DNA from: a virus
Lineage: Duplodnaviria; Heunggongvirae; Uroviricota; Caudoviricetes
Strand: one strand, 5' to 3'
DNA: 64,000 nucleotides
IMG/VR virus record: IMGVR_UViG_3300036860_000563
Span: 1-64,000 of that record
The position numbers were made by a program, and so were the translations under genes. Numbering within the stretch: position 1 is the first letter of the stretch; every line of letters begins with the position of its first letter. This document shows, piece after piece, positions 8,192 to 57,120 of the stretch. The notes under the pieces are model-generated. The model searched no databases. It was not told where the DNA came from and worked only from the letters and a program-made list of their open reading frames with translations.

Positions 8192-8246
8192 GAGTGATCC
8201 GGGTGGGTTGATGACTCTTGGGGAGGTCGCAACACCCGGATCACTC
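8192..8246 (-). terminator. 14-bp perfect stem-loop (GAGTGATCCGGGTG ... CACCCGGATCACTC, 27-nt loop) between ORF 8289..8678 and the tRNA
   Basis: Seen directly. No U-tract. Confidence 0.35.
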
Positions 8247-8288
8247 ACGAGAGTTATCCTACCAGGTCGGGGTGAAGGTAAGTTAGTT

Positions 8289-8678: not shown

Positions 8679-8683
8679 GTCGG

Positions 8684-8878: not shown

Positions 8879-9168
8879 TAGGTCACATCGCTTATGAAGT
8901 GACCGGGTGACGCGGGTGTAAACCGAATGGCCGCAGTTAGATCAACGCCACGGCGAGGTGCGTCGGTGCACATCTTGGCCCACGTCAGCGGGCCAACGTT
9001 CCGATCGTCGTACATGTTAGGTGTGAACCAGTGACGAGTTGGTTCGCCGAAGAGTACCATCGCAGCTACGTCATCTCGCACCACGACGGTGCTGTAGTTG
9101 TCTTCGGTCTCCGGCCAGTAGAGAACCGTGCCGTCGGGTGGCTCCGGTAGAGTGAGGTCATCGGTCAT
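8878..9168 (-). CDS. hypothetical protein
   Basis: 96-aa ORF. Confidence 0.35.
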   Translation of the reverse strand: MTDDLTLPEPPDGTVLYWPETEDNYSTVVVRDDVAAMVLFGEPTRHWFTPNMYDDRNVGPLTWAKMCTDAPRRGVDLTAAIRFTPASPGHFISDVT

Positions 9169-9781: not shown

Positions 9782-9879
9782 TAGGTCGCTCCTATCTCTC
9801 GATCACTCTCTACCTCACGAGCTACATCATATCAAGTTAACGTGATGTCGGCAACAACGACGGCTACGACCACGTAAGA

Positions 9880-25860: not shown

Positions 25861-25918
25861 ACATGTTCTTCTTCATCGGCTTTGTGGTGGGACTACCGGT
25901 CTTCTACGTGATCGCTCG

Positions 25919-41608: not shown

Positions 41609-41818
41609 GTGGACCCAGCTGACCTGGTGAACCGGTTCACGTACCACCCACCACAGCCCGAGCAGATTAAGATCTACGAGGCGATCCGGCGCTCGACGCT
41701 GGCACTCGCACTTGAGATCAACCAGTTCGTGCCGGACTCACGCGAGAAGAGTCTCGCGCTGACTCACCTCGAAGATGTCGTCTACTGCGCCAACGCGGCG
41801 GTGGCGCGTCACGCATAG
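41609..41818 (+). CDS. hypothetical protein
   Basis: GAGGAG RBS. GTG start. Confidence 0.4.
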   Translation: MDPADLVNRFTYHPPQPEQIKIYEAIRRSTLALALEINQFVPDSREKSLALTHLEDVVYCANAAVARHA

Positions 41819-41829: not shown

Positions 41830-44541
41830 GTGGCAGATCGACGACGTGATGTCGCTCACCTCATCGTGCCACACGGTGAGCTTTCACACGGTGCGAACGG
41901 TCACACACTTATCACAGCCACGGTCGGTAGTAGCGTCTCACCGATCAACGCGGCCGCCCAGCGGTTGGTTCCGATCGACACGTACCGTGCCCAGTACACC
42001 CAGCCGTGGCAGGACGAGGCCTGGGAATTCTACGCGTCGCTTGGAGAACTTAACCAGGGCGTTGAGTGGTTTGGTGAGGCGGTCTCACGTGTGCGACTAC
42101 TCGCCGCCGAGGTCACCCCCGGCGGGGATGAACCGAGGGTGCTGGACACCGGCCCGGCCGTCGACCTCGTCCAGCGGCTCTGCGGTGGCACGGACGGGCA
42201 GTCTCAGCTGCTCCGATCACTGGGTGTTCAGCTCTCGATACCGGGAGAGTGTTACTTCGTCGGCCGCGACGTGGGGCAGCTGAGCTCACTCGACACCACG
42301 TCGTTGGACGCCGAGCCCGACGAGGACGGTCGTGTCTGGACCGTTCAGCCGACGAACACGGTGCGGCAATCACAGCGTGGCGTCTGGCGGACGCTAGGTC
42401 GTCGCAATCGTACCGATACCCGGCGCGGCTGGGACCTACAGGTCGATGAGGCGGTGTGGGTACCACTGCCCGCCGAGACCCTCATCACTCGCGTCTGGGA
42501 CCGTGATGAGCGCTCTCCGTGGCTGGCCGCGTCACCCGCGCGGGCGGCGCTACCCATCATGCGTGAGATCGACATGTACAACCGGTACGTCATCGCGACG
42601 CTCATCTCACGTGTGGCGTCCAATGGCATCTTGCTGATCCCGGACGAGGTGACGCTACCCGTCAACCCCAACTACGAGACGGCCGCCGACCCGTTCATGG
42701 CCGAGCTGATCGACGTCATGCGCGCCGCGATCAAGAACCCCGGTTCACCGGCGTCCGCGGCACCGGTGCCACTCCGAGTGCGCTCCGAGTACATCGAACG
42801 GTTCCGACACCTCACGTTCGCGACGCCGTTTGACGACAAGATCTTTCAGGCACGCGCCGACGCGATCAAGCGACTCGCCACGACGCTCAACCTGCCGACC
42901 GAGGTTCTAACCGGTCTGGGTTCCGTAAATCATTGGTGCGGAGATGACTCCACGCAAGCATACGTGCGTGATCGTGGCTGGGTGAGCCAGCGAGAACTTA
43001 ACGTCGGTGACGTGATTCTTACCCTCAACCACGAGACCGGGCTGTCCGAGTGGCAACCCGTGCTTGACATCTACCGAGCTGACGTTACCGACGAACAGAT
43101 GCTGGCACTTACTAGCCGGTTTCACTCATCGGTGTCGACGATGGGTCACCGCTGGCCCGTCGTCACGTCGACGGGCTACGACTGGCGCACATCACAGACG
43201 CTCGAGGCGAGTGATCGACTCGTGCTCGCCGTTCCTCACACCGACCTACCGACGACGATGAAGTACAGCGATGAGTTCGTCGAGCTCGTCGCGTGGATGA
43301 CGACGGATGGCTCGATTCGTCGGTGGCAACCTAAGTATAAAGGATCACTCCAGGCCGCCGTCCACCAGTCACATCGTGCTCATCCTGGGCGAGTGGCGGA
43401 GATCAGGCGAGTGCTCACCGCACTGTACGGACCGGCGAGCGTGCACCCGCACGGGTGTGAACGAGCCACCGAGCCTCGCTGGCGTGAGCACCGGTACGAG
43501 TCGTACGGCATGACGACGTGGGTGCTCAACCGAGTCGCTGCCGAGTCGCTCACCGAGGTGATGAATGTTCCTGAGAAGATCGTTACGCGTGACTTTATCT
43601 ACTCACTGACGCGGGCGCAGCTCGACCTGTTCATCAACTCGTACGCGGCCGGTGATGGACGTCAGGGGCCTACCGGCAGCGTGATAAGCTCGCAGCGAGA
43701 CGCCCGCCGACTCGACGCACTCGAGCTCGCGGCGACGCTCGCCGGTTACGTGACGTCGCGTGGGGTCGGTACCGACGGTGGTTTTAAGACCGGGCCGATC
43801 ACCACTCAACGCGTTGTGCACCCGGACAACCAGAACGTACGTGGTGGGCGGTGTAGCGTGGGCGTTGGGAGCGTGACGTCGTACACGGGTGTTGTGTGGT
43901 GTCCCACGACGAAGAACGGTACGTGGTTCGCTCAGCACAACGGTAAGACGTTCTTCACCGGCAACAGCGCGTGGGCACTCAACGAGGACGGCATCAAGAT
44001 TCACATCTCACCCAAGGTTGAGATCATGACGCGGTGCCTCACCGTCGGCTACCTGCACCCGATGCTGCGAGCGCTGGGTGAGCCGACGACCACCGCGGCG
44101 GGTAACCGGATCATCATGTGGTACGACACGTCCGAGCTCACCCAGCGACCCGACCGGTCCCCGCTGGCCGTCCAGCTTCGGGAGATGCTGGTCATCAACG
44201 ACACCGCCGCACGGCGTGAGTCGGGTTTTGACGAGGCGGACGCTCCGACGGATGATGAGCTCGAGAAGATGATCCTCGAGAAGCTCGCCGTTAACCCACA
44301 GACGGCGACGGCTGCGCTGAAGGAGCTCACCGGGCTCAACATCGCCGAGCCGCCGCCCACGGTCCCGGTGGTCGGCACCCCGTCACAGCCCAGCGGCCCA
44401 GCTGGCGACGCGGGTGACGGAACCTCCGTGGAGTCGGCACCTCCGGTGTCGACCACCGGACCACCTAAGACGCGCGACGCACCGCCGCCGGCACCCGACG
44501 AGGGAGCCAACGCGGTCACGACCGGTAGCCGTGGTAACTAG
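41830..44541 (+). CDS. portal protein interrupted by an intein
   Basis: Lies immediately upstream of the MuF-like gene. Portal-like N-terminal region (YTQPWQDEAWEFYASLGEL). Hint + LAGLIDADG insertion. Pro/Gly/Ala-rich C-terminal tail. Confidence 0.6.
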   Translation: MADRRRDVAHLIVPHGELSHGANGHTLITATVGSSVSPINAAAQRLVPIDTYRAQYTQPWQDEAWEFYASLGELNQGVEWFGEAVSRVRLLAAEVTPGGDEPRVLDTGPAVDLVQRLCGGTDGQSQLLRSLGVQLSIPGECYFVGRDVGQLSSLDTTSLDAEPDEDGRVWTVQPTNTVRQSQRGVWRTLGRRNRTDTRRGWDLQVDEAVWVPLPAETLITRVWDRDERSPWLAASPARAALPIMREIDMYNRYVIATLISRVASNGILLIPDEVTLPVNPNYETAADPFMAELIDVMRAAIKNPGSPASAAPVPLRVRSEYIERFRHLTFATPFDDKIFQARADAIKRLATTLNLPTEVLTGLGSVNHWCGDDSTQAYVRDRGWVSQRELNVGDVILTLNHETGLSEWQPVLDIYRADVTDEQMLALTSRFHSSVSTMGHRWPVVTSTGYDWRTSQTLEASDRLVLAVPHTDLPTTMKYSDEFVELVAWMTTDGSIRRWQPKYKGSLQAAVHQSHRAHPGRVAEIRRVLTALYGPASVHPHGCERATEPRWREHRYESYGMTTWVLNRVAAESLTEVMNVPEKIVTRDFIYSLTRAQLDLFINSYAAGDGRQGPTGSVISSQRDARRLDALELAATLAGYVTSRGVGTDGGFKTGPITTQRVVHPDNQNVRGGRCSVGVGSVTSYTGVVWCPTTKNGTWFAQHNGKTFFTGNSAWALNEDGIKIHISPKVEIMTRCLTVGYLHPMLRALGEPTTTAAGNRIIMWYDTSELTQRPDRSPLAVQLREMLVINDTAARRESGFDEADAPTDDELEKMILEKLAVNPQTATAALKELTGLNIAEPPPTVPVVGTPSQPSGPAGDAGDGTSVESAPPVSTTGPPKTRDAPPPAPDEGANAVTTGSRGN
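42937..43965 (+). mobile_element. intein (Hint domain + LAGLIDADG homing endonuclease) inside the portal gene
   Basis: N-terminal Cys block CGDDSTQAYV...NVGDVILTLNHETG. LAGLIDADG-like motifs LVAWMTTDGSI and LFINSYAAGDGRQG. C-terminal block VVWCPTTKNGTWFAQHNGKTFFTGN|S. The C-terminal junction is ambiguous: HN at 43936..43941 is followed by Gly. Confidence 0.6.
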
Positions 44542-44543
44542 CC

Positions 44544-47500
44544 GTGGTACGCGTCCCGAGGTGGTCAGAGGATGAACTGGAGCGCCGCTCCGGCCAGCTA
44601 GCGGCGCTCATCCGGCGTGCCTGGCGCGCCGTCGCGCGCGTCGTCGCCGGCGACATCGGCCGGCGGAGACCGATGAGCGACGTCACACCTGACCTCATGC
44701 ACCACAATCGCGTCGCGTTCGCGTGGCACGTCGAGCTCGAGGATCAGGTTCTCGCGTACGTCGCGCGAACGTACGAGGACGCCGCGGCCGATGTGCTCAT
44801 CCCACTGGGTGATGCGGTCGCAAACCTAGCGCCACTGGGACCGGAACCCGCGCACCGACACCTCGCACTCGCGCGCAACCGACTGCGCGACGTCGCCGAT
44901 GACGTCTGGGTGATCGTGCGAGAGCAGCTCGTCCTGGGCAGCCAGGCGGGTGAGTCGACCCAGCAGCTCGCGCTCCGCGTTCAGAACGTCACGGGCATCT
45001 CCGACGCCCGGGCGTTCACGATCGCGCGGACGGAGGTGCACGCGGCCCACGAGGCCGGCGCGCACGACCAGGCGCTCTGGGTCGACCCAGACGGTAAGAA
45101 GGAGTGGCTCGCCACCGCGGACGACCGCACGCGTGAGTCACACCGCGTGGCAAGTGGGCAGACCGTCGCGCTGACGAAGTCGTTCAGCGTGGGAGAGGGC
45201 ACACTTCGCTACCCGGGCGACCCACTGGGCGACCCCGGTGAGACGATCAACTGCCGGTGCAGCACCGCGTTTCACATATCACTTGATATGATAGGCCCTG
45301 TGAGTGATCAGAGTGATCAGAGTGACCAGAGTGATCAGAGTGACGTTCACACCGTGACGGCCGGCGCGTGGAAGCCGCAGCAGCACCCGCGCGGGGCGGA
45401 CGGTAAGTTCATCGAGGCCGGCGCGATCAAGAACTTCTTGAGCGCGAAGAAGCCAACGTTTGATCACGCAGCGTCCGCTATAGCCGAGCTCAACCAGCAG
45501 AAGTGGAGCAAGCTTACCGACGAGCAGCGTCAACGCTTTGCGAGTGTCGTCGCCGCCTGGCCCGACGACAACATACTCAAAAAGAAGATCACTAAGCTCT
45601 CGCAGGTACCGGAGCCGGCGACGTCAAGCTCGCCACCAGGTGACTTCTCTCATCTTAAGAAGGTCGGCGCACAGCGGGGCTCCAACCCCGGTGGGATCTT
45701 CGAGGGGCCGGACGGGCAGCGCTACTACGTTAAGAAGGCGAAGACGCCGCAGCACGCGGCCAACGAGCGAGCGGCCGCGCAGCTGTACGAACTCGCCGGG
45801 ATCGACGTGCCTCAAGTCACACAGGGTGAGGGCGCACCGGGGCTCGGTGCTGGGTTGCAGACGCGCACGAAGCTCGTACCAGGCGCGCAGACCGATCTTA
45901 AGAAGAAGCTGCACGACCCGGCCTACGTAGCCGTGCTGCGCGAGGGTTTCGTCGTGGACGCGTGGCTCGCCAACTGGGACGTGGCGGGTCTGACGTACGA
46001 CAACGTCGTCACCGATGAGTACGGTGACCCGTGGCGGATCGACGTCGGGGGCGCGCTACTCTACCGTGCGATGGGCGCGCCGAAGGGTGTGGCGTTCGGT
46101 GATGAGGTGACCGAGCTCGACACGCTTCGTGATCCGGCGAAGAACCCGCAGGCGGCGTCCATCTTCGCGGGTATGACCGACGCCGAGCTGCGCGAGTCCG
46201 CGAAGCGCGTCGTTTCGATCACACCAGAGCAGATCGACCAAGTGATCACACAGGCGGGTTTACCGGCGTCCGTGGCGGAGACGCTCAAGAAGCGCCGCGA
46301 GTACATCATGAAGATGTACCCACCGATCTCCTGGGTCTCACCGGACGAGGTGCCCGCGGCGACCGAGCCTCACACGCCGGTCCCGGCGAAGCTGAAGAAG
46401 CTCACACCCTCCACGAAGAAGGTTGTACCTGCGACAATCTACAAGTCGCACGACGTGGGTGACGTCGTCGCGATCGACGAGCACAGCTCGATGCGGATCC
46501 GCTGGACGAGCGCGGGTTACACGCTCGACGTCAGCGATGACGATGGGGCCACCTGGACCCTAAAGACGAAGCTCACGAAGAGTCAGGCGTACCAGTCACT
46601 CAAGAGTAACACGATGTGGCGAGAACCGACTCTCGACGTCGTCGCTGGTCCGGAGGTAACGCCACCGGCGCCAACACCGGTGAAACCGCCTGTGACGACG
46701 AAGTTGGTGCCGAAACCAGAGTCGAAACCAGAGTCGAAACCGAAACCGAAACCGAAACCAGAGCAGCTCAGCGATGGCACCAACTACGAATCGGATGACG
46801 TACCGAACTGGCAGGACGTCATCGATCCAGATGTTCTTAACGCGCTGTCACCGGGCACGGTCATCGCCGTCTCGACCGACGGCAACTACCGACTCGTGAA
46901 GGCGCCGGGCGGTAACCTCATACTTGACATGCAAAAGCTTAGTGACGCTGGGTGGCTGCCGTGGGGAGGTATCTACACTCCTAACTATGATGACGGTGAC
47001 GAGCTCTTCGCCGAAGAACTCTCGCACTACGCGTCCGCGTGGGTGAAACCTAACTCACCACTAGGCCAACAGCTGTTAGATAAGAGTGACAAATTACCGA
47101 CGTTACCCGCACCGGTGGAAGACTTTCATTACTGGGTTGAGAAGTTGGTGCCACCATCACCCCCACCGGTTGAGCTCGCCGGTGTGTCCGGCACCAACAT
47201 CACACTTCACGAGTACAAGGACCTAGTTAACGTCGCGCTGAGCTCACCGGGCACGACCGTCGCGAAGACACCGGTGGGTGATGTACTACGGTCATCGAGT
47301 AGCGGGCACCTCATCTGGTACCACGCCGGTGACGAGCCCACCTCCGAGCAGTTGAACAAGCTCAAAGCGATTCAGTTGATGCGCAGTCCTACCGCTGGCT
47401 GGGTGATCGACGCTCAACTACTCGCGCAATCGTCTCACCCAAGTGTAGTTGACCTGGACTATGAACCGGATGACACACCCAACTGGGAAGAGATTCAGCA

Positions 47501-50042
47501 CCCAGCGGTTGACCCACCAACGGGTACCGTGCTCGCTGTCTCTACTGATGGTGAGTACATTCTCGTGTCGGAAGCACCGTTCGGTGACTTTATCGTAAAA
47601 CGTAAAGTTAACGGAGAGTGGTCGGACGTTAGTAGTTACGCACCTGAGGAGCTCAACGCGCTCGGTTGGTCCATTGATCACGCGCTTGAGTCGTACTCGT
47701 CTGCGTGGGTGACTCCCAGCTCTCCGTTAGGCCAGCGACTGCTCGAGAACGCACCGCCGCCGTCGCCGCAGTTACTACCACCGTCACCACCATCATCGGT
47801 GGGTGGCCAACCACTCGTTGGGTGGACCAGTGAGGACGTCGTCGAAGATTGGACGTTCCCGGACGCTAAGACTTGGCAACCAGGTGATGTCATCGCGCTA
47901 GCGGTGAGTGGCACAGGTCGGATCGTCGCACGTGATGATCCAATCTACGTGTACGCACTTCAACGTTGGTCTAACGGTGCGTGGAAGGATGAGTACTACG
48001 AGGAGAAGGGTGGGCTTCTTAAGTATCACACCCCCTCCTTCATCGACGATGGGGTGTGGGTGGTGCCACACCCGGGCATTAAGATTAACACGGACGAGCA
48101 GCTCACCACGCAGTCATCGGTCGTCACTCCGTCCGGTACCGTCGTCGACGTCACGCAGGTGCCAACCGCGACGCAGGTTGCGATGAAGAAGCACCTGAAG
48201 AAGCTCGGTGTTGGTTACTGGTCTAAGCCAGAGAAGATCTGGGAGGCTGTCAAGGAGCTGCAGAGTTCGTACGTTGGTACGAATGATGAGCAGCTCACAC
48301 CACTGCAGGTGCTGCAGTCGCTGGACGTGCAGACAAAGACGAAGGAACCGTCACCCTTTGAGACGAAGGTGACGAAGTGGCTCAGCACCGAGGCTGGGCA
48401 GGCGTACCTAGCGAAGCAGTACGAACCATCGCCATCACCGACGAGTGCGATCGAAACGTTTCTCGCACAGAAGACTAAGACACTTGGTTACCTCGACGAT
48501 GCGGTGTTTGATCTCACGCAAGAGAAGTGGGACGCGCTCACAGTTGATGATCAGCAGCAGTTCCTGGTCGCCGTCGACGCCGTTGTGGACCAGGATGACT
48601 CAAACGCGATCAAAGAGAAGATCGTTGGGTTGATGACTGGGTCGTGGTCAACGCCGACGACGTCGACGTCGACACCGTTGCCCGGGTTGCCCGGTTATCC
48701 AACCGTGAACTCCAACGTCAACGTGCCGTACACTCTAAAGAACAACCCCGCGACGACCGGAAATGAGATCTTCGCGCAGCTTCAGCACGCAGCAGACGGG
48801 CAAGTGCTCGCGTACGGTAACTCAGGAGCGTTCAAGTATCGGTTCGTAGTCGTTGAGACCGACGGTGTTAAGGGTGTCACTGTAGAGTCTTACAGCGTGG
48901 GTACGTGGCACACGTGGACCGGCTCGTGGGCGACGTCATTCTCGACGATGCCAGCTTTTGCTAAGTACGGTCTCACTAATCTCGTAACCGCCAAGAACGC
49001 AAAGATCGTTAATACAAAGAAGTCGAAGACGACGACGACGACGAAGACGACGACTAGGGCCAAGGCTGAGGCTGAGGTCGAGGTGGTTACACCACTGCCC
49101 ACCGCGGGTAAGCTCAACCTGGGCAGTGGTGACATCGAGCACCTCACCGACGAGAAGAAGGCGAAGCTCTACGCCGAGTTTAAGAAGCAACCTGCGACGT
49201 ACCTCAGCTCACCACCGGAGGACATCTACGCCGCACTGAGCACCATCGCCGACACGTACGGTATGAGCACCCTGCAGCTGCTGCGCGTCATCGACGACGT
49301 TGGTGCTAAGAAGGTCAACAAGACCGACGAGCACCTCTTTGAGCAGACCATCATTAAGTGGCTCGGCACACCTAAGGGTCACGCGGTTGTGACCGGCCAG
49401 CCGATCCCAAAGCCGCCCGCGCCACTACTGAGCGCGGGTGTCGACCCAACGAAGATTCCGACGTTCGAGGAGTCGTCGAAGTACTCGTACGGTGTCATCT
49501 TCATGGGTAAGCCGATCGACGAGTTCTGGGCCGAGGCCGTCGCGGCGCACGGTGAGTGGACCGACGATCAGAAGAAGGGCCTGCGCGCGTACACCGGTGG
49601 CATCTACTACTCGATCAACTCATACCTGTTCGGTAAGATCGAGACGATCAGCTCCACGAACTCAAAGGCGATGCACCAGGTGCAGCTCGGCATGCGATCG
49701 TCCACTCGTCCACTACTACTGCACCGGGGCGTCGGTTACAACGCTCTGGGTGTTCACAGTCACGAGCAGCTGGAGAAGCTCGTCGGCCAGACGCGCGTGC
49801 AGGAGGGCTTTGGCTCCACCAGCGTGGGTGGTCACGCCGCGTTCTCAGGACAGATGACGTTGGAGGTCGAGGCACCACCTGGTACTCCGATGGCGTGGGT
49901 GCAACCGATCTCACACTACAAAAGTGAGAACGAAATGGTGCTCGCCGCCGGTCTTCACTACCGGATCGTCAGCGTGAAGAAGGTGGGGTATCGGAGCGTG
50001 GTGCGCGTCCGGGTCGTACCACCGCCGAAGGAGACGAAGTGA
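44544..50042 (+). CDS. giant MuF-like (Mu F / SPP1 gp7) minor capsid protein with an internal kinase-like domain, tandemly duplicated modules and a C-terminal ADP-ribosyltransferase domain
   Basis: MuF motif DDRTRESHRVASGQTV...GETINCRCS. ART motifs LRAYTGGIYYSINSYL, LLLHRGVGY (Arg), GFGSTSV (STS), SENEMVL (ExE). Internal duplicated about-150-aa modules (YESDDVPNWQDV...WVKPNSPLGQQLL / YEPDDTPNWEEI...WVTPSSPLGQRLL). Confidence 0.75.
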   Translation: MVRVPRWSEDELERRSGQLAALIRRAWRAVARVVAGDIGRRRPMSDVTPDLMHHNRVAFAWHVELEDQVLAYVARTYEDAAADVLIPLGDAVANLAPLGPEPAHRHLALARNRLRDVADDVWVIVREQLVLGSQAGESTQQLALRVQNVTGISDARAFTIARTEVHAAHEAGAHDQALWVDPDGKKEWLATADDRTRESHRVASGQTVALTKSFSVGEGTLRYPGDPLGDPGETINCRCSTAFHISLDMIGPVSDQSDQSDQSDQSDVHTVTAGAWKPQQHPRGADGKFIEAGAIKNFLSAKKPTFDHAASAIAELNQQKWSKLTDEQRQRFASVVAAWPDDNILKKKITKLSQVPEPATSSSPPGDFSHLKKVGAQRGSNPGGIFEGPDGQRYYVKKAKTPQHAANERAAAQLYELAGIDVPQVTQGEGAPGLGAGLQTRTKLVPGAQTDLKKKLHDPAYVAVLREGFVVDAWLANWDVAGLTYDNVVTDEYGDPWRIDVGGALLYRAMGAPKGVAFGDEVTELDTLRDPAKNPQAASIFAGMTDAELRESAKRVVSITPEQIDQVITQAGLPASVAETLKKRREYIMKMYPPISWVSPDEVPAATEPHTPVPAKLKKLTPSTKKVVPATIYKSHDVGDVVAIDEHSSMRIRWTSAGYTLDVSDDDGATWTLKTKLTKSQAYQSLKSNTMWREPTLDVVAGPEVTPPAPTPVKPPVTTKLVPKPESKPESKPKPKPKPEQLSDGTNYESDDVPNWQDVIDPDVLNALSPGTVIAVSTDGNYRLVKAPGGNLILDMQKLSDAGWLPWGGIYTPNYDDGDELFAEELSHYASAWVKPNSPLGQQLLDKSDKLPTLPAPVEDFHYWVEKLVPPSPPPVELAGVSGTNITLHEYKDLVNVALSSPGTTVAKTPVGDVLRSSSSGHLIWYHAGDEPTSEQLNKLKAIQLMRSPTAGWVIDAQLLAQSSHPSVVDLDYEPDDTPNWEEIQHPAVDPPTGTVLAVSTDGEYILVSEAPFGDFIVKRKVNGEWSDVSSYAPEELNALGWSIDHALESYSSAWVTPSSPLGQRLLENAPPPSPQLLPPSPPSSVGGQPLVGWTSEDVVEDWTFPDAKTWQPGDVIALAVSGTGRIVARDDPIYVYALQRWSNGAWKDEYYEEKGGLLKYHTPSFIDDGVWVVPHPGIKINTDEQLTTQSSVVTPSGTVVDVTQVPTATQVAMKKHLKKLGVGYWSKPEKIWEAVKELQSSYVGTNDEQLTPLQVLQSLDVQTKTKEPSPFETKVTKWLSTEAGQAYLAKQYEPSPSPTSAIETFLAQKTKTLGYLDDAVFDLTQEKWDALTVDDQQQFLVAVDAVVDQDDSNAIKEKIVGLMTGSWSTPTTSTSTPLPGLPGYPTVNSNVNVPYTLKNNPATTGNEIFAQLQHAADGQVLAYGNSGAFKYRFVVVETDGVKGVTVESYSVGTWHTWTGSWATSFSTMPAFAKYGLTNLVTAKNAKIVNTKKSKTTTTTKTTTRAKAEAEVEVVTPLPTAGKLNLGSGDIEHLTDEKKAKLYAEFKKQPATYLSSPPEDIYAALSTIADTYGMSTLQLLRVIDDVGAKKVNKTDEHLFEQTIIKWLGTPKGHAVVTGQPIPKPPAPLLSAGVDPTKIPTFEESSKYSYGVIFMGKPIDEFWAEAVAAHGEWTDDQKKGLRAYTGGIYYSINSYLFGKIETISSTNSKAMHQVQLGMRSSTRPLLLHRGVGYNALGVHSHEQLEKLVGQTRVQEGFGSTSVGGHAAFSGQMTLEVEAPPGTPMAWVQPISHYKSENEMVLAAGLHYRIVSVKKVGYRSVVRVRVVPPPKETK

Positions 50043-53000
50043 GCGCGCTCGAGGACGACATTGGCTTCACACTCACCACCGTCGTTGAGATGCCACGCGG
50101 TCTGACCACGGACGAGGCACACCGGTTTCTCGCCACAGGTGAGTTGCTAACCGACGTGAATGTCGAGCTGACGTTAGCGACCACGGAGGTAGGTCCCACG
50201 GTGGCGCGGAGAGCACCGAGTGCGAGTGAGGTGCGAGCGTGGCTCGCGGGTGTGGCACCAGCGATCACGGCCGGAGGGTCCAGCGCTAACGTACGTCACG
50301 AGAAGTACGTTGGTGAACTAGGTGATGATGACCAGACGGGTGAACACGCAGGCCGATGGTGTGAGTCAGCTGAGCTGGTTAAACCGGTTGAACTGGCTAA
50401 AACTGGTACAAAATTGGTGCCGGTAACCTCCTCCGAGACGCCCGAACCGTCACCGGCCGTAGTCGAACCAACGGTGAAATCAGTGATGGATGTGACGCAT
50501 ACCGGAGCTATGATCGCATTAAGGCCCGCCGACGTCGACGCCCAGCGACTCGCCATTGACGGCGGTGAGGAACCGAACGAGCTGCACTGCACGCTCTACT
50601 ACCTGGGAGACGCCACCAACTTCTCCGAGGACGCGCGTGCGCAACTCATCGACCTCGTGCGTGAGTACGTGTACGACTCACCCACGCTCACGGTGGATGG
50701 CTTTGCGATCTCCATGTTCAACCCACCGGGTACCGAGCGAGTTGACGATGACATGGAGCGTGAGCCGTGCGTCGTGCTGGGCCTGTCCGGGTCCGCGTTG
50801 ACGTCGGTGCACGACGCCGTCGCGACCGCCATCGAGGACCACGGTGTCGACCTACCGGAGCAGCACTCACCCTGGGTTCCGCACATCACACTCGTCTACA
50901 CCGATGACGCGGACCTGAGTGCGTTCACCGAGAAGACCGGACCGGTGACACTTGATACGGTGTGCGTGTACTTCGGTGATGACCGATACGAGATTCCACT
51001 GGACGAGAGTAGTGACGATGACGATGACGACGAGCAAACGACGGGTGACGCTGCGTACGACGTTGAGCTGAGTGACGCGGGTGAGCTGATCGTACCGAAC
51101 GTGCTGCTCGACTGGCGAGCGTGGGTGACGCTCGAGAGAGAACGTGACGTCAACCTACCGAGTGGGCCCGGTCACCAGCTTCGGGACTACTGGGTTCACG
51201 GTCCCGGCGCACTGAAGATCAGGTGGAACACGGAGGGTGACGGCACGCGGTGCATCCGGTACCTTCGTAAGTACGTGAAGGATCCGGGTGGCCTGTGCCA
51301 AGAGTATCACCGACTCGCGACCGGTAAGAGCATGCACCCACACCCGGGACGAGTCACCGAGTCCAGCGACACCGTAACACTGAGTGACACCTCGTTGTAC
51401 GGTAGACCTAACGCCGAGGGAGGTGCTGACGTGCCCTGGCACGTTGAGAAGCGTGGTGATGAGTTCTGCGTCGTGAAGGACGCCGATGACAGTGTGGCTG
51501 GGTGTCACAACCTACGAACAGACGCGATCAACCAGCTGCGCGCGCTCTACGCGAGTGAACCAGATGTGGCCGCCGACGCGCGCGTCGTAGGTGACTGCCC
51601 ACCGGGACATCATCGTATGCCCAGCGGTGAGTGCATGGCCGACGAGGACATGACGTCACCAACACCAACGTCAACACCGGCAGTAGGCCCGAGTGGCGCG
51701 TACGAGCTCGACCCGGCCGCGACGATCGCACCGTGGGAGGGTGTGCTGACCCTGGAGGGTGTCGAGTCCGGTGACGGTCGAATGTTCGCCGCCGGTTCAC
51801 TGTCGTGGGACACAACGCCGAGTGACGGTCTACCGCTGATGTGGCAGAAGGAGACGAGTCACGGTGGTCAGGGTGACGTCTCGGTGCGAGTTGGTAGCGT
51901 TCAGGAGGTGTGGCGTGAGCCCGACCCGGGTGGACGCGCCGACGTTAACATGATCAGGGGTCGGGGCGTCTTCGACCTGCGCAACCCGGACGGCCACGAG
52001 GCCCACCGACGCATGTGGGACGGCTTCATGTCCGGCAACTCGGTGGACGTGGACTCGGTGAAGGACGCGAGCGTCGAGGTCGTCTACCCAGCGACGGTAA
52101 CGGAGAGTGGTAGCGCGAGTTCTCAGGTGTTCGGCACGCCCGAGCTCACGGTGTTTCACCGTGGACGCATCCGCGGCACGACGCTCGTCGAGTTTCCAGC
52201 GTTCACCGAGGCGCGGCTGCACCTCATCAACCCGGTGACGGCGAGCGCCGAAGAGTCCGGTGACGATGACGTGACGAGCGCAGAGACGGCGACGACGACT
52301 CTCACCGGCTCCAGCACCGGTGCGACCGAGGTGCACGTCGCGGCGTCATCAGACGCGTCGTGGGACGCCGGTGCCAACGAGACCAGGCTACCGTCGCCGT
52401 TACCACTGAGCGTCGCTAAGAAGATGTTCGCGTACGTGGACACGTCGCAGGTCGAGAACGGTCACGTACCGAAGAGTGCGGGTAAGCTGCCCCACCACGA
52501 GGTGAGCGTGACCGGTGCTCCGGGGGCGGCCAACCTCACCGGTGTGTCGGCCGCGATCGGCGCGCTGCACGGCGCGCGAACGCCGGTGAGCGTTCCGAGT
52601 GGAGCGCGTCACGCGATCTACGAGCACCTCGCGGCTCACCTGCGTGCCGCTGGGCGTGAGCCACCGCCGTTCTCACTCGTGGCTGAGCGAACGCAGACCC
52701 TCGTGGCGGCGACCAGCGTCATTCAGATCTCGGACACACCGCCACGTGAGTGGTTCGCCGAGCCGGTCGACGTGCCGGCGCACGGTGCGCTGACCGTCAC
52801 CGCCGAGGGCCGTGTGTACGGCTACCTCGCACCGCTCAACGTACGTCACCGTTCGTTCTCCGGGCGCAACCAACTCGTACCGTTTAAGAACGTCGACTAC
52901 GACCGGTTCATGGGTGGTGAGACGATCGTCGCGGACGGCGGGCGTGTGACGACCGGCCCGATCACGATGAACTGTGGCCACCTACCACCGGTTCCGGGTT

Positions 53001-53479
53001 TCGACGCGTTGGACGCGCAGGAGCACTACGACAACTCGTGCTCGGTGGTGGCGGCGGTGCGAGTTGGTGAGAACCAGACCGGTGTCTGGGTGGCCGGCGC
53101 GCTGCTGCCCGACGTCACACCGGCGCAGGTCACACGTATGATGACGTGCCGGCTGTCCGGTGACTGGAGACCGCACCTGGACCGGTTCGGTTGGCGTGAG
53201 CTCACCGCCGCGCTGCTGGTGCCCGTGCCCGGCTTTCCGATGGCGCGCGTCGCACCTAGCGTCTCCGTCGATGACGGTCAGCTCGTCGCGGCCGCCGTCC
53301 CACTTGAGTTTCTCGGTGGTGAACCGCAAGTTAACTTGCGACTCACCGTCGACGCGCTACGTGCGGAGACGTCGTCGCTACGCAGGACGTTGGTGCAGGT
53401 CCTCGCGCGCCGGGTAGGACGTGATCCTCGATCACGCGCCGATCAACTACGCGCGCGCGTGCACGAGAGTGAGGGGTGA
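50039..53479 (+). CDS. capsid maturation (prohead) protease with an N-terminal 2H-phosphoesterase (LigT-like) domain and a large C-terminal extension
   Basis: 2H motifs HCTLYYLG and HITLVYT (two HxTx). HK97-type protease region GDGRMFAAGSL...LPLMWQKETSH...GFMSGNSVDVD. Poly-Asp linker SDDDDDDEQ. Confidence 0.6.
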   Translation: MSALEDDIGFTLTTVVEMPRGLTTDEAHRFLATGELLTDVNVELTLATTEVGPTVARRAPSASEVRAWLAGVAPAITAGGSSANVRHEKYVGELGDDDQTGEHAGRWCESAELVKPVELAKTGTKLVPVTSSETPEPSPAVVEPTVKSVMDVTHTGAMIALRPADVDAQRLAIDGGEEPNELHCTLYYLGDATNFSEDARAQLIDLVREYVYDSPTLTVDGFAISMFNPPGTERVDDDMEREPCVVLGLSGSALTSVHDAVATAIEDHGVDLPEQHSPWVPHITLVYTDDADLSAFTEKTGPVTLDTVCVYFGDDRYEIPLDESSDDDDDDEQTTGDAAYDVELSDAGELIVPNVLLDWRAWVTLERERDVNLPSGPGHQLRDYWVHGPGALKIRWNTEGDGTRCIRYLRKYVKDPGGLCQEYHRLATGKSMHPHPGRVTESSDTVTLSDTSLYGRPNAEGGADVPWHVEKRGDEFCVVKDADDSVAGCHNLRTDAINQLRALYASEPDVAADARVVGDCPPGHHRMPSGECMADEDMTSPTPTSTPAVGPSGAYELDPAATIAPWEGVLTLEGVESGDGRMFAAGSLSWDTTPSDGLPLMWQKETSHGGQGDVSVRVGSVQEVWREPDPGGRADVNMIRGRGVFDLRNPDGHEAHRRMWDGFMSGNSVDVDSVKDASVEVVYPATVTESGSASSQVFGTPELTVFHRGRIRGTTLVEFPAFTEARLHLINPVTASAEESGDDDVTSAETATTTLTGSSTGATEVHVAASSDASWDAGANETRLPSPLPLSVAKKMFAYVDTSQVENGHVPKSAGKLPHHEVSVTGAPGAANLTGVSAAIGALHGARTPVSVPSGARHAIYEHLAAHLRAAGREPPPFSLVAERTQTLVAATSVIQISDTPPREWFAEPVDVPAHGALTVTAEGRVYGYLAPLNVRHRSFSGRNQLVPFKNVDYDRFMGGETIVADGGRVTTGPITMNCGHLPPVPGFDALDAQEHYDNSCSVVAAVRVGENQTGVWVAGALLPDVTPAQVTRMMTCRLSGDWRPHLDRFGWRELTAALLVPVPGFPMARVAPSVSVDDGQLVAAAVPLEFLGGEPQVNLRLTVDALRAETSSLRRTLVQVLARRVGRDPRSRADQLRARVHESEG

Positions 53480-53738: not shown

Positions 53739-55469
53739 GTGGACGAGAACGAGGCTGTGGTCTTTCCTCAGAACCTCTCAGCGCTCTCCGTCGAGACGCT
53801 CTCCACGCTGGAGACGCAGGCACTCACGGAGTTCGACGCGCTCTCCGACCCCCAGACCGACATCGATGACACCGGCGTTCAGCGACTGGTGGTGCTCGCC
53901 GACGGCATCGAGGCCGTGAAGACCGAGCTCACCGGTCGGCGTGCCACCCAGCAGGAACGTCTGGTAACCGCCGCGAGTCAACGTGATCGCGTTCAGCGCA
54001 TGCGCACGGTGGAGCTGATGACCGCCGAGACGCCCGTGACCCCGGTCGTCGTGGACGACGAGCCCGAGACCGGTACACCCACCGAACCCGTGGTGTCAGA
54101 TGTCGCGCCGGTGGCCACACCAACGATCACACCGAGCGCCGAGTCGCCGCGCCGGCGCGCGTCACTCGCCGTCGCGCAGGCACGCGCACCCCACGTGCCG
54201 AGTGGAGTGAACGGCCCAGCGATGCACATCACGGCCGCGGCACCGACGTCCGGGGTGCAGATCGGAGCCCAGTTCGCCGACGTGGACGCGCTGGTCTCCG
54301 CGGTGCAGAGTCACGCGCGCAGCCTGATCACCACACGGGGCACACCGAGCTTCCTCACCGTCGCGACCATCGCGAACGAGTACGAGGAGGTCGTCGACGG
54401 CGGTGATCGGACGTCCCTCCAGGACTTCGAGTACATGGCACGGCGACTGCGCACACCCGAGGTACTCGATGCACTCGTCGCCGGCGGTGGCTGGTGCTCA
54501 CCGTCCGAGATCAGGTACAACTTCTTCAACGTCGCGTGTCAGGACGGCATGGTCGACCTGCCAACGTTCGGCGTGAAGCGTGGCGGCGTGCAGGTACCGA
54601 TCTCACCCTCGCTGGCCGACGTGTTCACCGGTACGTTCACCAACGCCACCAACCCCTGGCTGTGGACCGAGGCCGACGACATTCTCACCGTCACCGGTGT
54701 GCCGAACAAGCCGGTCGTCCGGGTACCGTGTGCGGGCTTCGTCGACCGGCGACTCGAGTGCTATGGCATCGCTCTCACCGCGGGCAACCTGACCGACAAC
54801 GCGTGGCCCGAGGCGACGCGCAACTTCCTCTCGCTGCTGATGTCGGCGCACTTCCACGCGTCCAACCAGCGGTACCTGCAGACGATGGCCGCGCTGTCCA
54901 GCTCGATCGTGAGCGTCACCGGCGGCGTCGGTACCGCGATCTCGGCGGACCTGCCGGACGCCGTCGCGATCGCGGCGAACGACTACCGGGTGCGCTACGG
55001 CATGTGTGAGAACGACGTCCTCGAGGTCATCCTCCCCCGCTGGGTGAGGGACGCCATCCGTGGTGACCTGTCACGACGCTCCGGTGACGCGACGTACCTG
55101 ATGATGACGGACGCGCAGGTCAACGCGCTGTTCACCGCTCGCAACGTCCGGGTGCAGTTCGTGATGGACTGGCAGGTACGCTCGGCGGGTCAGTTCGGCG
55201 GCACCACGCCGCTGACGGCCTGGCCGTCCACGGTCGACTTCATGATCTACGCCGCCGGGACGTTCATGCTCGGCAACGGCCTGACGCTCGATCTGGGTGT
55301 CGTCCGGGACAGCGTGCTCAACGCCGAGAACGATCACACAGCCGCGTGGACGGAAGAGTGTCACCTCATCACGCGCGTCGGCAACGAGTCACGGCAGTAC
55401 CGCGTGCCGGTCTGCGTCGGTGGCAAGACCGGTGGTACGTTCACCAGCTGCTTCACGATCGCCGGCTGA
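53739..55469 (+). CDS. major capsid protein (HK97 fold) with N-terminal delta/scaffolding-like domain
   Basis: C-terminal AAGTFMLGNGLTLDLGVVRDSVLNAENDHTAAWTEECHLITRVG aligns with HK97 gp5 AAGTFTVGGFDMASQVWDRMDATVEVSREDRDNFVKNMLTILCEERLALA. Coiled-coil then Pro-rich N-terminal region. Confidence 0.6.
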   Translation: MDENEAVVFPQNLSALSVETLSTLETQALTEFDALSDPQTDIDDTGVQRLVVLADGIEAVKTELTGRRATQQERLVTAASQRDRVQRMRTVELMTAETPVTPVVVDDEPETGTPTEPVVSDVAPVATPTITPSAESPRRRASLAVAQARAPHVPSGVNGPAMHITAAAPTSGVQIGAQFADVDALVSAVQSHARSLITTRGTPSFLTVATIANEYEEVVDGGDRTSLQDFEYMARRLRTPEVLDALVAGGGWCSPSEIRYNFFNVACQDGMVDLPTFGVKRGGVQVPISPSLADVFTGTFTNATNPWLWTEADDILTVTGVPNKPVVRVPCAGFVDRRLECYGIALTAGNLTDNAWPEATRNFLSLLMSAHFHASNQRYLQTMAALSSSIVSVTGGVGTAISADLPDAVAIAANDYRVRYGMCENDVLEVILPRWVRDAIRGDLSRRSGDATYLMMTDAQVNALFTARNVRVQFVMDWQVRSAGQFGGTTPLTAWPSTVDFMIYAAGTFMLGNGLTLDLGVVRDSVLNAENDHTAAWTEECHLITRVGNESRQYRVPVCVGGKTGGTFTSCFTIAG

Positions 55470-55527: not shown

Positions 55528-56448
55528 GTGCCTAACGCGCGACAACCACGCCGGTCCGTCGAGTCGCCAACGTTCACCCCTCTTCCGTACGGGTTGCTGT
55601 CGACGCTCACGCCCGAACTACGCTCACCGGCCGATCCCCACTGGCAGGCGGGTGTCACCTACGAGCCACTGTGTGGTGGTAGTGGTACGACGTTTGAGGA
55701 GTGCTTCTCCGTCACCGGAGTGGGGTTCGCGCCACCGACGGCGTCAAAGGTGGACACCGGTGGCCTCGACCGACGCGGTGCGACCGCGTTCACCGTCTAC
55801 GACCGCGTCGACTGCAGCGCGCCTGGGTTCTGGGAGCGCGCCGAGGAGGTCGTCGGCGAGCTGCTCACCGAGACCGAGCAGTGGCAGGTGGAGCGGACGT
55901 TCTGGACCGGCGTCGCGGGTGGTCAGACCGTCGTCTTTCCACACCTAGCGGCCAACGCGCCGGTGCTCGACGAGTCGGGCATTGTGCTGCAGACCGCGGC
56001 GGTGACGGTGACCGGTGCTGCACTCGACGTCGTCGAGGGACTCGGGCGCCTCGAGTCCACGGTGGCGGACTGCTACTCCGGCGTGGCGGTCATTCACGTA
56101 CCACGCACACTCGCACCCGCGCTCGCCAACGCGCAGCTGCTGGTGCGGGACGGCACGCGCTACCGAACGCACAACGGCAACCTGGTGGTGCTGGGAGCGG
56201 GTTACCGCGGGACGGCACCGGACGGCTCAACGCCCAGCGGTTCCGCGTGGGTCTACGCCACCGGGGCGATGTTCATCTACCGTGGTCGTCCGGTCATACT
56301 ACCGATCCGAGACTCGGTCGACCGCGCCGAAAACACGATCAACGCGATCGCCGAACGTACGTACGTCATCGGCTGGGACTGCTGTCACGTAGGAGTTAAC
56401 CTCTCCACCGGCGGGATCATCACAGGCGCCGTCAACGGCGCGAGCTAG
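55528..56448 (+). CDS. virion structural protein (hypothetical)
   Basis: Position in the head/tail module. 306 aa. Confidence 0.4.
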   Translation: MPNARQPRRSVESPTFTPLPYGLLSTLTPELRSPADPHWQAGVTYEPLCGGSGTTFEECFSVTGVGFAPPTASKVDTGGLDRRGATAFTVYDRVDCSAPGFWERAEEVVGELLTETEQWQVERTFWTGVAGGQTVVFPHLAANAPVLDESGIVLQTAAVTVTGAALDVVEGLGRLESTVADCYSGVAVIHVPRTLAPALANAQLLVRDGTRYRTHNGNLVVLGAGYRGTAPDGSTPSGSAWVYATGAMFIYRGRPVILPIRDSVDRAENTINAIAERTYVIGWDCCHVGVNLSTGGIITGAVNGAS

Positions 56449-56457: not shown

Positions 56458-57120
56458 ATGGTAGCCCAGTGCGCGTCCGCCATCCAAGCGAGGGTGGCGC
56501 GACTCATCAAGCTGGACGTCTGTGGTAACCCGGTCACCGGAGCGGGCAGCGCCGTCGTCGTCACAGACGGCTTCGTCAGCATCCAGCCGTCGCCGCAGTA
56601 CCTCGACGGCGAGGAGCACCAGCAGCGCAAGGCCAACGGCTCACTCTGCCTCTACCAGAAGGACCCGTCCGAGCTGACGCGTGTCGAGCTCACAGTCAAC
56701 TGGTGTGTGATGGACCCGGACGCGATTGTGATCGTCACCGGGGAGCGACTACTCGCCAACGCGGGTGTGACTGGCACGGGTGTCGCGCTGGGCGAGGGCC
56801 AGCTGACGGCACACTTCTCACTCGAGGTGTGGCAACCCATCGTCGGGGCGGGAGCGTGTGACACGTCTGGCCTGCAGCGTTTCCTCTACTGGGCGTTCCC
56901 CAACGTCACCAACACCAAGGTCAACCAGTTCACGTTCGAGAACGCACCGCTGCAGTTTACCACACAGTCGGAGACGATGGCCGTGGGCTCACTGTGGGGT
57001 GACGGTCCGGGCAGCGCCGGCCCCTGGGCGCCCGTGTTTCAGACCGGTGAGCACTTCATGTTCAACATCACAACCGTCGCGCTACCGACCGCGACGTGCG
57101 GAGCTGTGCTACTCTCGTGA
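56458..57120 (+). CDS. virion structural protein (hypothetical)
   Basis: 220 aa, beta-rich composition. Confidence 0.4.
   Translation: MVAQCASAIQARVARLIKLDVCGNPVTGAGSAVVVTDGFVSIQPSPQYLDGEEHQQRKANGSLCLYQKDPSELTRVELTVNWCVMDPDAIVIVTGERLLANAGVTGTGVALGEGQLTAHFSLEVWQPIVGAGACDTSGLQRFLYWAFPNVTNTKVNQFTFENAPLQFTTQSETMAVGSLWGDGPGSAGPWAPVFQTGEHFMFNITTVALPTATCGAVLLS

Follow-up and report, generated by a model that had tools for sequence, protein, structure and literature searches.

The window, a stretch of 64,000 nucleotides of DNA, derives from an uncultured actinobacterial phage and carries a block of head genes in the order portal, MuF-ADP-ribosyltransferase, 2H-protease gene and capsid proteins. A gene for an Acb2/Tad1-type nucleotide sponge lies directly upstream of the portal gene, so that the phage already has one predicted counter-measure to nucleotide signalling, and a TROVE/Ro-like protein is also encoded. 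A near-identity nucleotide search with the 2H-protease gene against 50,697 phage genomes gave no match, and the phage thus has no close cultured relative. The genes that bear on the analysis are as follows.

24733-25860, T4-type RNA ligase
25772-27055, Pnkp, with a HAD phosphatase domain (E = 3e-54)
41830..44541, + strand, portal protein (PHROG 776, E = 3e-102)
44544..50042, + strand, MuF minor-head protein fused to an ADP-ribosyltransferase, 1832 aa (Phage_Mu_F, ADPrib_exo_Tox)
50039..53479, + strand, predicted head-assembly polyprotein with 2H phosphoesterase and protease domains, 1146 aa (118 homologues)
53739..55469, + strand, major capsid protein (PHROG 777, E = 1e-118)
55528..56448, + strand, second capsid protein, pentamer type (PHROG 779, E = 1e-47)

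The MuF protein matched the Pfam families Phage_Mu_F (E = 5.7e-14) and ADPrib_exo_Tox (E = 2.2e-14). Its transferase part has R1729, STS at 1758-1760 and ExE at 1795-1797 (numbered from the motif starts), and it is predicted to be a second head-delivered enzyme. In the Gordonia phage Inspectinfecti the relative of the major capsid protein is annotated "major capsid hexamer protein" and the gene at the position of the second capsid gene "major capsid pentamer protein". The long N-terminal region of the major capsid protein is likely to be removed on maturation.

The gene at 50039-53479 is one unbroken frame, whose GTG start overlaps the upstream stop TGA (GTGA) and is preceded, 5 nt upstream, by an AAGGAG ribosome-binding site at 50028-50033. 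The JGI gene model is shorter (989 aa) and starts at M158. As the sole form this was ruled out by the conservation of the N-terminus together with the strong ribosome-binding site; five other proteins begin with a counterpart of the first ~90 aa and the long form is therefore real. An internal start may be used in addition to the GTG. A sequence search of the PDB with the whole protein returned only a chance match to GADD45. The parts of the protein can be listed as follows.

50039..50314, + strand, N-terminal conserved module, residues 1-92 (also at the N-termini of P0002, P0004, P0074, P0099 and P0103)
50486..51013, + strand, 2H phosphoesterase domain, residues 150-325 (PF13563, PHROG 2659, AlphaFold, Foldseek)
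50585..50596, + strand, first HxTx motif, H183-C-T185-L (aligns with the first HxT of PH0099, TT0787 and LigT)
50882..50893, + strand, second HxTx motif, H282-I-T284-L (aligns with the second HxT of solved LigT-like enzymes)
51131..51358, + strand, small conserved domain, residues 365-440 (PHROG 6439, E = 2.8e-18)
51401..51568, + strand, small conserved domain, residues 455-510 (PHROG 3684, E = 2.7e-4)
51701..52243, + strand, protease-like domain 1, residues 555-735, HK97 gp4 / T4 gp21 type (candidate catalytic His608 and Ser668)
52331..52678, + strand, middle domain, residues 765-880 (confident mixed alpha/beta model)
52721..53308, + strand, protease-like domain 2, residues 895-1090 (common to actinophage "capsid maturation protease" genes)
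53309..53479, + strand, basic C-terminal tail, residues 1091-1146, candidate capsid-targeting segment (11 Lys/Arg in 56 aa)

The initial annotation had recognised two HxTx motifs in this protein, and both are present (HCTLYYLG at 183-190 and HITLVYT at 282-288, with a His-His spacing of 99 aa). Its assignment of the region to the 2H superfamily was borne out by matches to Pfam PF13563 (E = 2.8e-6; score 27.9 bits, cut-off 27) and PHROG 2659 (E = 1.3e-22), by the alignment of the motifs and by an AlphaFold model with a pLDDT of 91.8. One H-x-T/S-x motif is found in each half of the domain, and the model has a two-lobed alpha+beta fold with each HxT on a central strand, the motif His residues opening model strands 40-47 and 138-143. 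When the model was compared with the PDB using Foldseek the best 50 matches were all 2H enzymes, headed by E. coli LigT (E = 1.5e-6). Across 48 homologues H183, T185 and H282 are unchanged; T284 is replaced by Cys or Ala in some homologues. As judged from sequence and modelled fold, residues 150-325 are a real, intact 2H phosphoesterase domain, and the match is far beyond chance.

Within the superfamily, both HxT motifs of the family profile align with those of solved LigT-like enzymes. The ThpR equivalog model TIGR02258 gave 19.1 bits, below its curated threshold of 65.7, and the domain appears to be LigT-like but not an ortholog of ThpR/LigT. It also falls outside the Acb1 family (profile E = 0.19-0.96; query-normalised TM 0.40-0.50), the query-normalised TM to Acb1 in Foldseek being lower than those to LigT, CPDase and Usb1. 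Both by sequence and by fold the domain is closer to LigT-like enzymes than to Acb1.

That the closest solved relatives are LigT-like by profile (PH0099, E = 1e-4; TT0787; LigT) and by fold speaks for a role in RNA repair, in which a LigT/ThpR-type 2',3'-cyclic phosphodiesterase would heal the ends that host anticodon nucleases or toxins leave in tRNA or mRNA and would work with the phage ligase and Pnkp, delivery in the virion being optional. The T4-type RNA ligase, Pnkp and TROVE/Ro-like protein of this phage are consistent with such a role. We nevertheless consider it quite unlikely. It is weakened because the RNA ligase and Pnkp are encoded separately, ~24 kb off in another gene block; the HAD phosphatase domain of Pnkp already gives end-healing, the shortfall against the ThpR model counts against it, and the 2H domains of polyvalent proteins are reported by Iyer et al. 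never to associate with RNA ligases. The domain might alternatively be an offensive RNase that is delivered to the host, trims its RNAs in the manner of Usb1 and leaves 2',3'-cyclic ends in the course of host takeover, a parallel to the MuF-fused BECR RNase domains. Human Usb1 gave the top query-normalised TM values in the Foldseek list (0.60-0.61), this role is the first of two proposed by Iyer et al. 2017 and the adjoining ADP-ribosyltransferase suggests a host-modifying toolkit. However, identity to Usb1 is just 8-10%, the family profile recovers no Usb1 sequence and no feature of the 2H domain suggests RNA specificity, all of which makes an RNase role rather improbable as well.

The three sequence motifs from which an HK97-type prohead protease core had been proposed are also present (GDGRMFAAGSL at 578-588, LPLMWQKETSH at 598-608 and GNSVDVD at 666-672). 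In weak hhalign alignments Ser668 of domain 1 pairs with Ser114 of HK97 gp4 (E = 2.3e-4, probability 45%) and with Ser140 of T4 gp21 (E = 2.6e-3), while gp4 H65 is placed three to four residues off H608. S668 is invariant and a His is found in the preceding loop in 77/77 sequences, and the core is structurally similar to the assemblin-like capsid protease fold of T4 gp21 and the herpesvirus proteases. Against this, Pfam searches at E <= 10 gave no match for five domain-1 and three domain-2 sequences apart from a weak S77 signal (E = 0.006) in one homologue, the family model PF04586 (MEROPS S78) was not matched, nor was any S78 or S77 model at curated thresholds, and a PDB search with the long alignment A2 gave no protease matches. 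The assignment of residues 555-735 as a protease is supported, more weakly than that of the 2H domain.

What had been described as a further 400-aa extension is present, but it holds a domain that the description had overlooked and that is common to >1,100 actinophage genes, many of them annotated as capsid maturation protease. With tblastn 1164 phage records matched, mostly across residues 904-1128, and PHROG 18402 "head maturation protease" matched domain 2 at E = 3e-48. H937, H981 and S1040 are unchanged in 91 sequences, and because the extension carries this invariant His/His/Ser set of its own the protein has two protease-like domains. No sequence similarity was found between domain 2 and gp4 or gp21, and hhalign of domain 1 against domain 2 gave only a 19-column match (E = 0.019) at a shared C-terminal strand. 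In the model the succession of strand-His loop, hairpin, helix and strand-Ser is shared by both domains; from this order and the conserved His and Ser we infer that they are homologous.

The middle domain between them gave no family match, but six of its residues (W775, H819, H820, Y861, H863, H867) are unchanged across 40 sequences. The domain at residues 365-440 is found in many homologues and is also free-standing, with tblastn matches to small genes of Gordonia and Nocardia phages. That at residues 455-510 is followed by the motif CPPGHHxMPxGEC and recurs in homologues, its position among the other domains being variable. In several homologues the sequence (V/I)GRD-x-x-x-R is followed by an Arg-rich stretch. 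The C-terminus of HK97 gp4 targets it to the capsid, and by analogy the basic tail is a candidate capsid-targeting segment.

Among the 118 homologues the 2H domain is joined to MuF, to ClpP-type and Mu-I-type proteases and to a portal, and is accompanied by ADP-ribosyltransferase, GNAT and Nudix domains. MuF, 2H and both protease domains occur in a single chain in P0033, P0035 and P0053, from Streptomyces prophages. About 12 homologues have both protease domains without 2H, and enzyme cargoes other than 2H are found at the equivalent position in homologues. An unbiased search with the 2H profile returned at least 750 cluster representatives at E <= 1e-30 (clusters at 50% identity). The best 150 included 131 new proteins with a median length of ~700 aa, only 10/131 being <300 aa; protease domains were found in 33/131, MuF in 23/131 and ADP-ribosyltransferase in 11/131. 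Many members of the clade come from actinobacterial prophages, those of Streptomyces included. The clade is large, most of its members form part of long multidomain proteins, and these sequences indicate that head proteins carry the 2H domain as an exchangeable cargo. As in polyvalent proteins, several effector-type domains are found on one chain, among head genes, on a predicted head-incorporated carrier.

The company of ADP-ribosyltransferases, which share a polypeptide with 2H in ~10/118 homologues and in 11/131 of the new proteins and are encoded next to it in the window, could mean that the 2H enzyme processes a phosphodiester derived from ADP-ribose which the co-delivered transferase makes or uses, such as ADP-ribose 1'',2''-cyclic phosphate or a nucleic-acid end bearing ADP-ribose. 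Appr>p is a substrate of the 2H CPDases of plants and yeast, and 1fsi and 1jh6 are among the fold matches. Such a partnership is highly improbable, however, as the transferase is of the Alt/VIP2 protein-modifying type and not the Appr>p-making KptA/Tpt1, and the co-occurrence of two common cargoes may be coincidence.

A candidate cleavage motif, [LIVMF][TV]A[AGS], appears to mark the borders of the 2H domain, being present in 53% of the windows that immediately precede it and in 27% of those that immediately follow it, as against 7.2% of random ones, and a sequence resembling it lies at the predicted maturation junction of the capsid protein. The motif is also found where the 2H domain is the extreme N-terminus of a protein, and may be part of the domain and not a cleavage site. 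In the 1146-aa protein no copy lies beside the 2H domain, the nearest being at 76-79 and 733-736, which makes the release of a free 2H fragment from this protein uncertain.

The reading that we favour, tentatively and with somewhat less than even confidence, is that the gene encodes a head-assembly polyprotein carrying a 2H enzyme as cargo, which is packaged in the capsid and reaches the host with the DNA, host nucleotide messengers being the substrate that we prefer. The C-terminal half, with two serine-protease-like domains and the basic tail, would carry the protein into the procapsid in the fashion of a prohead protease. The protease would then cleave the capsid protein as well as linkers within the polyprotein itself and so release a folded, catalytically intact LigT-like 2H phosphoesterase, which would exceed the size of the capsid pores and be retained in the head. 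It would enter the next host with the DNA, together with the ADP-ribosyltransferase on the neighbouring MuF protein, and would there hydrolyse 2',3'-cyclic, 2'-5' or 3'-5' phosphodiester bonds, in our preferred reading those of nucleotide second messengers of host defence, e.g. CBASS and type III CRISPR, or alternatively those of cleaved or cyclic-ended RNA. A capsid location and ejection of the enzyme are plausible and fit the position among head genes, the MuF-ADP-ribosyltransferase neighbour and the cargoes at the equivalent position in homologues.

The prohead proteases of HK97 and T4 autodigest and the fragments exit the capsid, and cargo attached to the protease could, by analogy, share that fate. 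The 2H domain would in that case act late in the producing cell, or be degraded or expelled with the protease fragments, the fusion providing late co-expression; the lack of the candidate cleavage motif on both flanks of 2H in the 1146-aa protein is in keeping with this. Co-expression alone, however, is hard-pressed to account for the recurrence of 2H on MuF, portal and three protease types, and late timing would be wrong for an anti-defence enzyme unless it were carried to the next cell. SPP1 gp7, a MuF protein, remains in the virion, and where MuF and protease form a single chain the MuF part must survive processing to do so. That the 2H enzyme is never delivered is on balance unlikely.

If the delivered cargo that we favour does travel in the capsid, it would act ahead of host nucleotide-signalled defence. 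We know of no anti-CBASS or anti-CRISPR nuclease with such a timing advantage. In a stronger form, which we hold to be doubtful, capsids would be preloaded with a nuclease that destroys cyclic-oligonucleotide signals of CBASS or type III CRISPR as soon as infection starts, ahead of phage gene expression, the protease being the loading vehicle, with one domain processing the capsid protein and the other freeing the cargo. Were this true, no anti-signalling enzyme would have been delivered in a virion before it, and the capsid protease would provide a "cargo slot" of general use with exchangeable contents. The processing of head polyproteins in actinophages could also be approached through the tandem protease domains and the boundary motif. 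A search of actinophage papers found neither virion proteomics nor discussion of 2H-protease fusions.

Roles for 2H domains in head-packaged "polyvalent" proteins were already proposed by Iyer et al. in 2017 and 2022, who put forward packaging and ejection for 2H fused to MuF and portal (PMC5512222, PMC9503650). The carriers of 2H named in the available portions of these papers are MuF and portal, a capsid-processing peptidase being mentioned only as a carrier of Nudix. The protein described here shares with those systems, all of them computational predictions, the 2H clade, the head-gene context and the predicted logic of packaging and injection, but here the MuF-ADP-ribosyltransferase is a separate upstream gene and 2H is on the protease polyprotein. 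Going by the sequences, the 2H-protease arrangement is widespread and was previously predicted computationally, so that the interpretation, although plausible, is not new; the gene in the window adds a member to a described class and no new principle.

The nearest cultured counterparts are "head maturation protease" gp18 of Zipp and "RNA ligase" gp19 of Inspectinfecti, from Gordonia phages isolated by SEA-PHAGES. Both also have 2H and a C-terminal protease-type domain, are encoded between MuF and capsid genes and are 31-35% identical to the 1146-aa protein over a third of it. They differ in a reversed order, with a protease-type domain first and 2H in mid-protein, in the lack of the HK97-type first protease domain and in their C-terminal repeats. 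YorkOnyx is a further cultured Gordonia phage that has the fusion. Because these cultured phages carry the family, the 2017 prediction is directly testable with existing isolates.

The best fold and profile matches to the 2H domain are RNA 2',3'-cyclic phosphodiesterases of the LigT/ThpR family (LigT, 5ldm, of E. coli; PH0099, 1vdx, of P. horikoshii; TT0787, 1iuh, of T. thermophilus). They are alike in size and can be aligned at the N-terminal strand and at both HxT motifs, but identity is 14-16% and TM only 0.53-0.57, and they are free-standing whereas the 2H domain here is embedded in a 1146-aa structural polyprotein. Acb1 of T4 and FBB1 (Hobbs et al. 2022, PMC9117128) is likewise phage-encoded, has the 2H fold and acts on nucleotide immune signals, and its structures 7t26, 7t27 and 9q2y are among the fold matches. 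It is, however, free-standing, unlike the embedded domain, and compact at ~150 aa, with a lid at its C-terminus, and virion packaging is nowhere mentioned in that paper. Set beside the prohead proteases HK97 gp4, T4 gp21 and herpesvirus assemblin, the polyprotein has a candidate catalytic Ser that aligns weakly (with gp4 and gp21) and a gene position between portal/MuF and capsid, but it differs from them in its two tandem protease-like domains and ~550 aa of N-terminal cargo. T4 Alt and the internal proteins, and the ejection proteins of the giant phage SPN3US, are reported to enter the head, to be processed there by the prohead protease and to pass into the host with the DNA, and SPN3US is a precedent for ejection proteins processed in this way. 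Those proteins are either targeted by a short N-terminal peptide or separate from the protease, whereas in the present polyprotein protease and cargo form one covalent chain.

The gene at 50039-53479 on the plus strand forms one unbroken frame of 1146 codons. Its GTG start shares bases with the stop of the preceding gene (GTGA), AAGGAG, 5 nt 5' of it, provides a ribosome-binding site, and the first ~90 residues of the product were found again as the start of several other proteins; for these reasons the 1146-aa long form is judged from the sequence to be the real one, and the public JGI gene call has a later start at M158. The initial annotation described the product as a 2H phosphoesterase fused to an HK97-type prohead protease with a further 400-aa extension, and every motif that it quoted was found in place.

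Features of the 1146-aa protein
Residues 183-190, motif HCTLYYLG
Residues 282-288, motif HITLVYT
Residues 578-588, motif GDGRMFAAGSL
Residues 598-608, motif LPLMWQKETSH
Residues 666-672, motif GNSVDVD
Residues 765-880 (52331-52678, plus strand), middle domain of confident fold between the two protease-like domains
Residues 1091-1146, basic tail at the C-terminal end

Residues ~150-325 matched Pfam PF13563 (2'-5' RNA ligase superfamily) with E = 2.8e-6, slightly over the curated cut-off, and PHROG 2659 with E = 1.3e-22. Alignment of 48 diverse homologous segments revealed that H183, T185, N228, H282 and D306 were invariant, and that position 284, Thr in this protein, can be Cys or Ala in relatives of the Streptomyces type. 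The AlphaFold model of the domain (pLDDT 91.8, pTM 0.85) was compared with the PDB using Foldseek and the best 50 matches were 2H enzymes without exception, headed by E. coli LigT/ThpR (E = 1.5e-6, TM 0.56) and including bacterial and archaeal CPDases, Usb1, AKAP18, a plant CPDase, rotavirus VP3 and a poxvirus cGAMP phosphodiesterase. A profile of the family also recovered solved LigT-like proteins by sequence, both HxT motifs aligning with theirs. The family matches, invariant residues, fold and profile alignment together argue that the domain is an intact 2H phosphoesterase of the LigT-like kind, which bears out the original assignment. It is not a ThpR ortholog, since the score with the ThpR equivalog model was 19.1 bits where 65.7 is the cut-off. 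Nor does it belong with Acb1, a confirmed 2H-fold enzyme (PMC9117128), which was found by structure at lower coverage (TM 0.40-0.50) and was not significant against the family profile (E = 0.19-0.96). Use of the domain as an offensive RNase is considered improbable.

The protease part was less straightforward. No Pfam match was obtained for residues 555-735, permissive threshold included, but when a profile of 77 homologous segments was compared with HK97 gp4, 122 columns aligned (E = 2.3e-4), and T4 gp21 could be aligned as well (E = 2.6e-3). Ser668 fell on the catalytic serines gp4 Ser114 and gp21 Ser140; Ser668 and Asp672 were invariant and a His in the loop before was present in 77/77 sequences. 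The profile alignments and the conserved residues support an HK97-type core, if more weakly than the 2H assignment is supported. The 400-aa extension is not filler; it consists of three parts. The first, the middle domain, has an invariant Trp (W775), His-His (H819-H820) and a YxHxxxH motif (Y861, H863, H867); it matched neither a family nor a structure, and was kept in ~40 of 118 homologues, with a short linker in its place in all the others. The second, at residues 895-1090, is a protease-like domain that is common to 1,164 sequenced actinophages, many of the genes sharing it being annotated 'capsid maturation protease'. H937, H981 and S1040 were invariant in 91 sequences, and in the model the elements appear in the same order as in the first protease-like domain (strand then His loop, hairpin, helix, Ser-first strand). 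The basic tail completes the protein.

The 118 homologues came from a search with the whole 1146-aa product, and their sequences indicate a 2H module that is both optional and mobile: ~12 had both protease domains and no 2H module, and in ~20 the module was present but these protease domains were not. It was otherwise joined to MuF, ClpP-type or Mu-I-type proteases, portal, ADP-ribosyltransferase, GNAT and Nudix, and in Streptomyces prophage proteins 2H, MuF and both protease domains occurred on a single chain. An unbiased 2H-profile search of 1.84 billion cluster representatives gave 5,023 matches, 750 of them with E <= 1e-30. The best 150 included 131 new proteins with a median length of ~700 aa (10/131 were <300 aa), which carried protease domains (33/131), MuF (23/131) or ADP-ribosyltransferase (11/131). 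Two short linear motifs, F(D/N)PxQPRDxxG(R/K)W and HGTHNQxSHG, recurred between the domains of related head polyproteins (homologous proteins P0004, P0007-P0010, P0012, P0013 and P0070), and a weaker form was seen at about residue 275 of the window's MuF protein (AWKPQQHPRGADGKF).

The 2H-protease fusion is already present in three cultured Gordonia phages, with a domain order unlike that of the window's protein.

Fusions in cultured Gordonia phages
Zipp (L006) 4974-8027, gp18, annotated "head maturation protease"
Inspectinfecti (L001) 7905-10667, gp19, annotated "RNA ligase"
YorkOnyx gp17, annotated "head maturation protease"

Zipp gp18 and Inspectinfecti gp19 are related, the query matching both, and their differing names each cover one domain out of two; for a 2H phosphoesterase the name "RNA ligase" is wrong. 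The window itself belongs to a metagenomic contig of 94 kb and has phage replication genes, and a near-identity nucleotide search of the gene against 50,697 phage genomes found no close cultured relative.

Within the window the gene lies in a head gene block, in the order terminase, portal, MuF-ADP-ribosyltransferase, the fusion gene, capsid genes and tail protein.

Other genes of the window
12113-13768, minus strand, TROVE (Ro60-like) protein, 551 aa, E = 3e-17
Within 24733-27055, plus strand, T4-type RNA ligase 1-like protein (PF09511, E = 3e-9), overlapping the Pnkp gene
Within 24733-27055, plus strand, polynucleotide kinase-phosphatase (Pnkp; AAA_33 kinase and HAD_PNKP, E = 3e-54)
33232-34740, large terminase
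41609-41818, plus strand, Acb2/Tad1-type hairpin ORF, 69 aa (PF24729, E = 5e-18, 65 bits where the cut-off is 27; PHROG 1454)
41830-44541, portal
44544-50042, plus strand, MuF-ADP-ribosyltransferase, 1832 aa, with R, STS and ExE motifs
53739-55469, plus strand, major capsid protein (PHROG 777)
55528-56448, plus strand, second capsid protein, pentamer-type (PHROG 779)
56458-57120, major tail protein

The 69-aa ORF, adjoining the portal gene on its 5' side inside the late gene block, is likely to encode a cyclic-nucleotide sponge of the anti-CBASS/anti-Thoeris type. The MuF protein ends in the ADP-ribosyltransferase. Its other features are an SDQ x4 repeat, a stretch rich in PK/PE and a pair of long repeats inside the chain, "DDVPNWQDVI...AWVKPNSPLGQQLL" and "DDTPNWEEIQ...AWVTPSSPLGQRLL"; family searches matched nothing over ~1,300 of its residues. 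Its gene directly precedes that of the fusion. Action of the 2H domain as a partner of the ADP-ribosyltransferase is rated as most improbable. The RNA ligase and Pnkp form a repair pair in the same genome, ~24 kb distant from the 2H gene, and a role of the 2H domain in RNA repair is accordingly rated as improbable. The tandem capsid genes have counterparts in Inspectinfecti that are annotated separately as hexamer and pentamer major capsid proteins. The TROVE protein also has a weak von Willebrand A domain; by its sequence it is a phage-encoded Ro-like protein that binds RNA.

A candidate cleavage motif, [LIVMF][TV]A[AGS], occurred within the 20 residues that precede the 2H domain in 98/185 homologues and directly downstream in 60/222, against a background of 7.2% in windows placed at random in these proteins. 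Two cautions apply to its reading as a cleavage site: the counted homologues are not independent of each other, and the motif was found too where the 2H domain is the extreme N-terminus. A similar sequence is at the predicted maturation junction of the capsid protein encoded at 53739-55469 (HITAA/APTSG, HITAA being residues 164-168), where it aligned to ILTAS and IVAGA of two cultured phages. The enrichment and the junction sequence fit a candidate site at domain borders that the actinophage head protease would recognise. In the window's protein the motif is absent beside the 2H domain, the nearest copies being at 76-79, 733-736 and 888-891, and that the domain is not delivered at all is an unlikely but realistic alternative. 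In the preferred scheme of packaging and delivery, the C-terminal half would carry the whole protein into the procapsid, proteolysis would release the cargo and the head would retain the folded 2H domain. This would then pass with the DNA into the next cell, the ADP-ribosyltransferase alongside, and there hydrolyse the nucleotides that signal defence or, as the alternative, cyclic-ended RNA. The analysis establishes what the domains are, that their catalytic residues are intact, where the gene lies and that the fusion recurs in modular form, whereas the scheme from encapsidation on is inferred at each step.

The fusion is confirmed, whereas its interpretation in the initial annotation is partly supported and is not new, because it corresponds to an existing computational prediction. 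The part of Iyer et al. 2017 (PMC5512222) that deals with the 2H domains of phage "polyvalent proteins", a whole section, noted fusions to MuF and portal, proposed packaging and injection, and suggested a Usb1-like RNase or the degradation of 2'-5' oligoadenylate or other defence nucleotides. The corresponding part of Iyer et al. 2022 (PMC9503650) repeated the proposal and also mentioned fusions of Nudix domains to the capsid-processing serine peptidase. No experimental test of any member of the 2H head-polyprotein family was found in the literature; the family is large, testing is now easy in cultured Gordonia phages, and a specialist would not be surprised by the finding. The fusion belongs to a class already described computationally, and differs from the cases in those parts of Iyer et al. 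in that the 2H carrier is a protease polyprotein, where theirs were MuF or portal, and in having two tandem protease domains.
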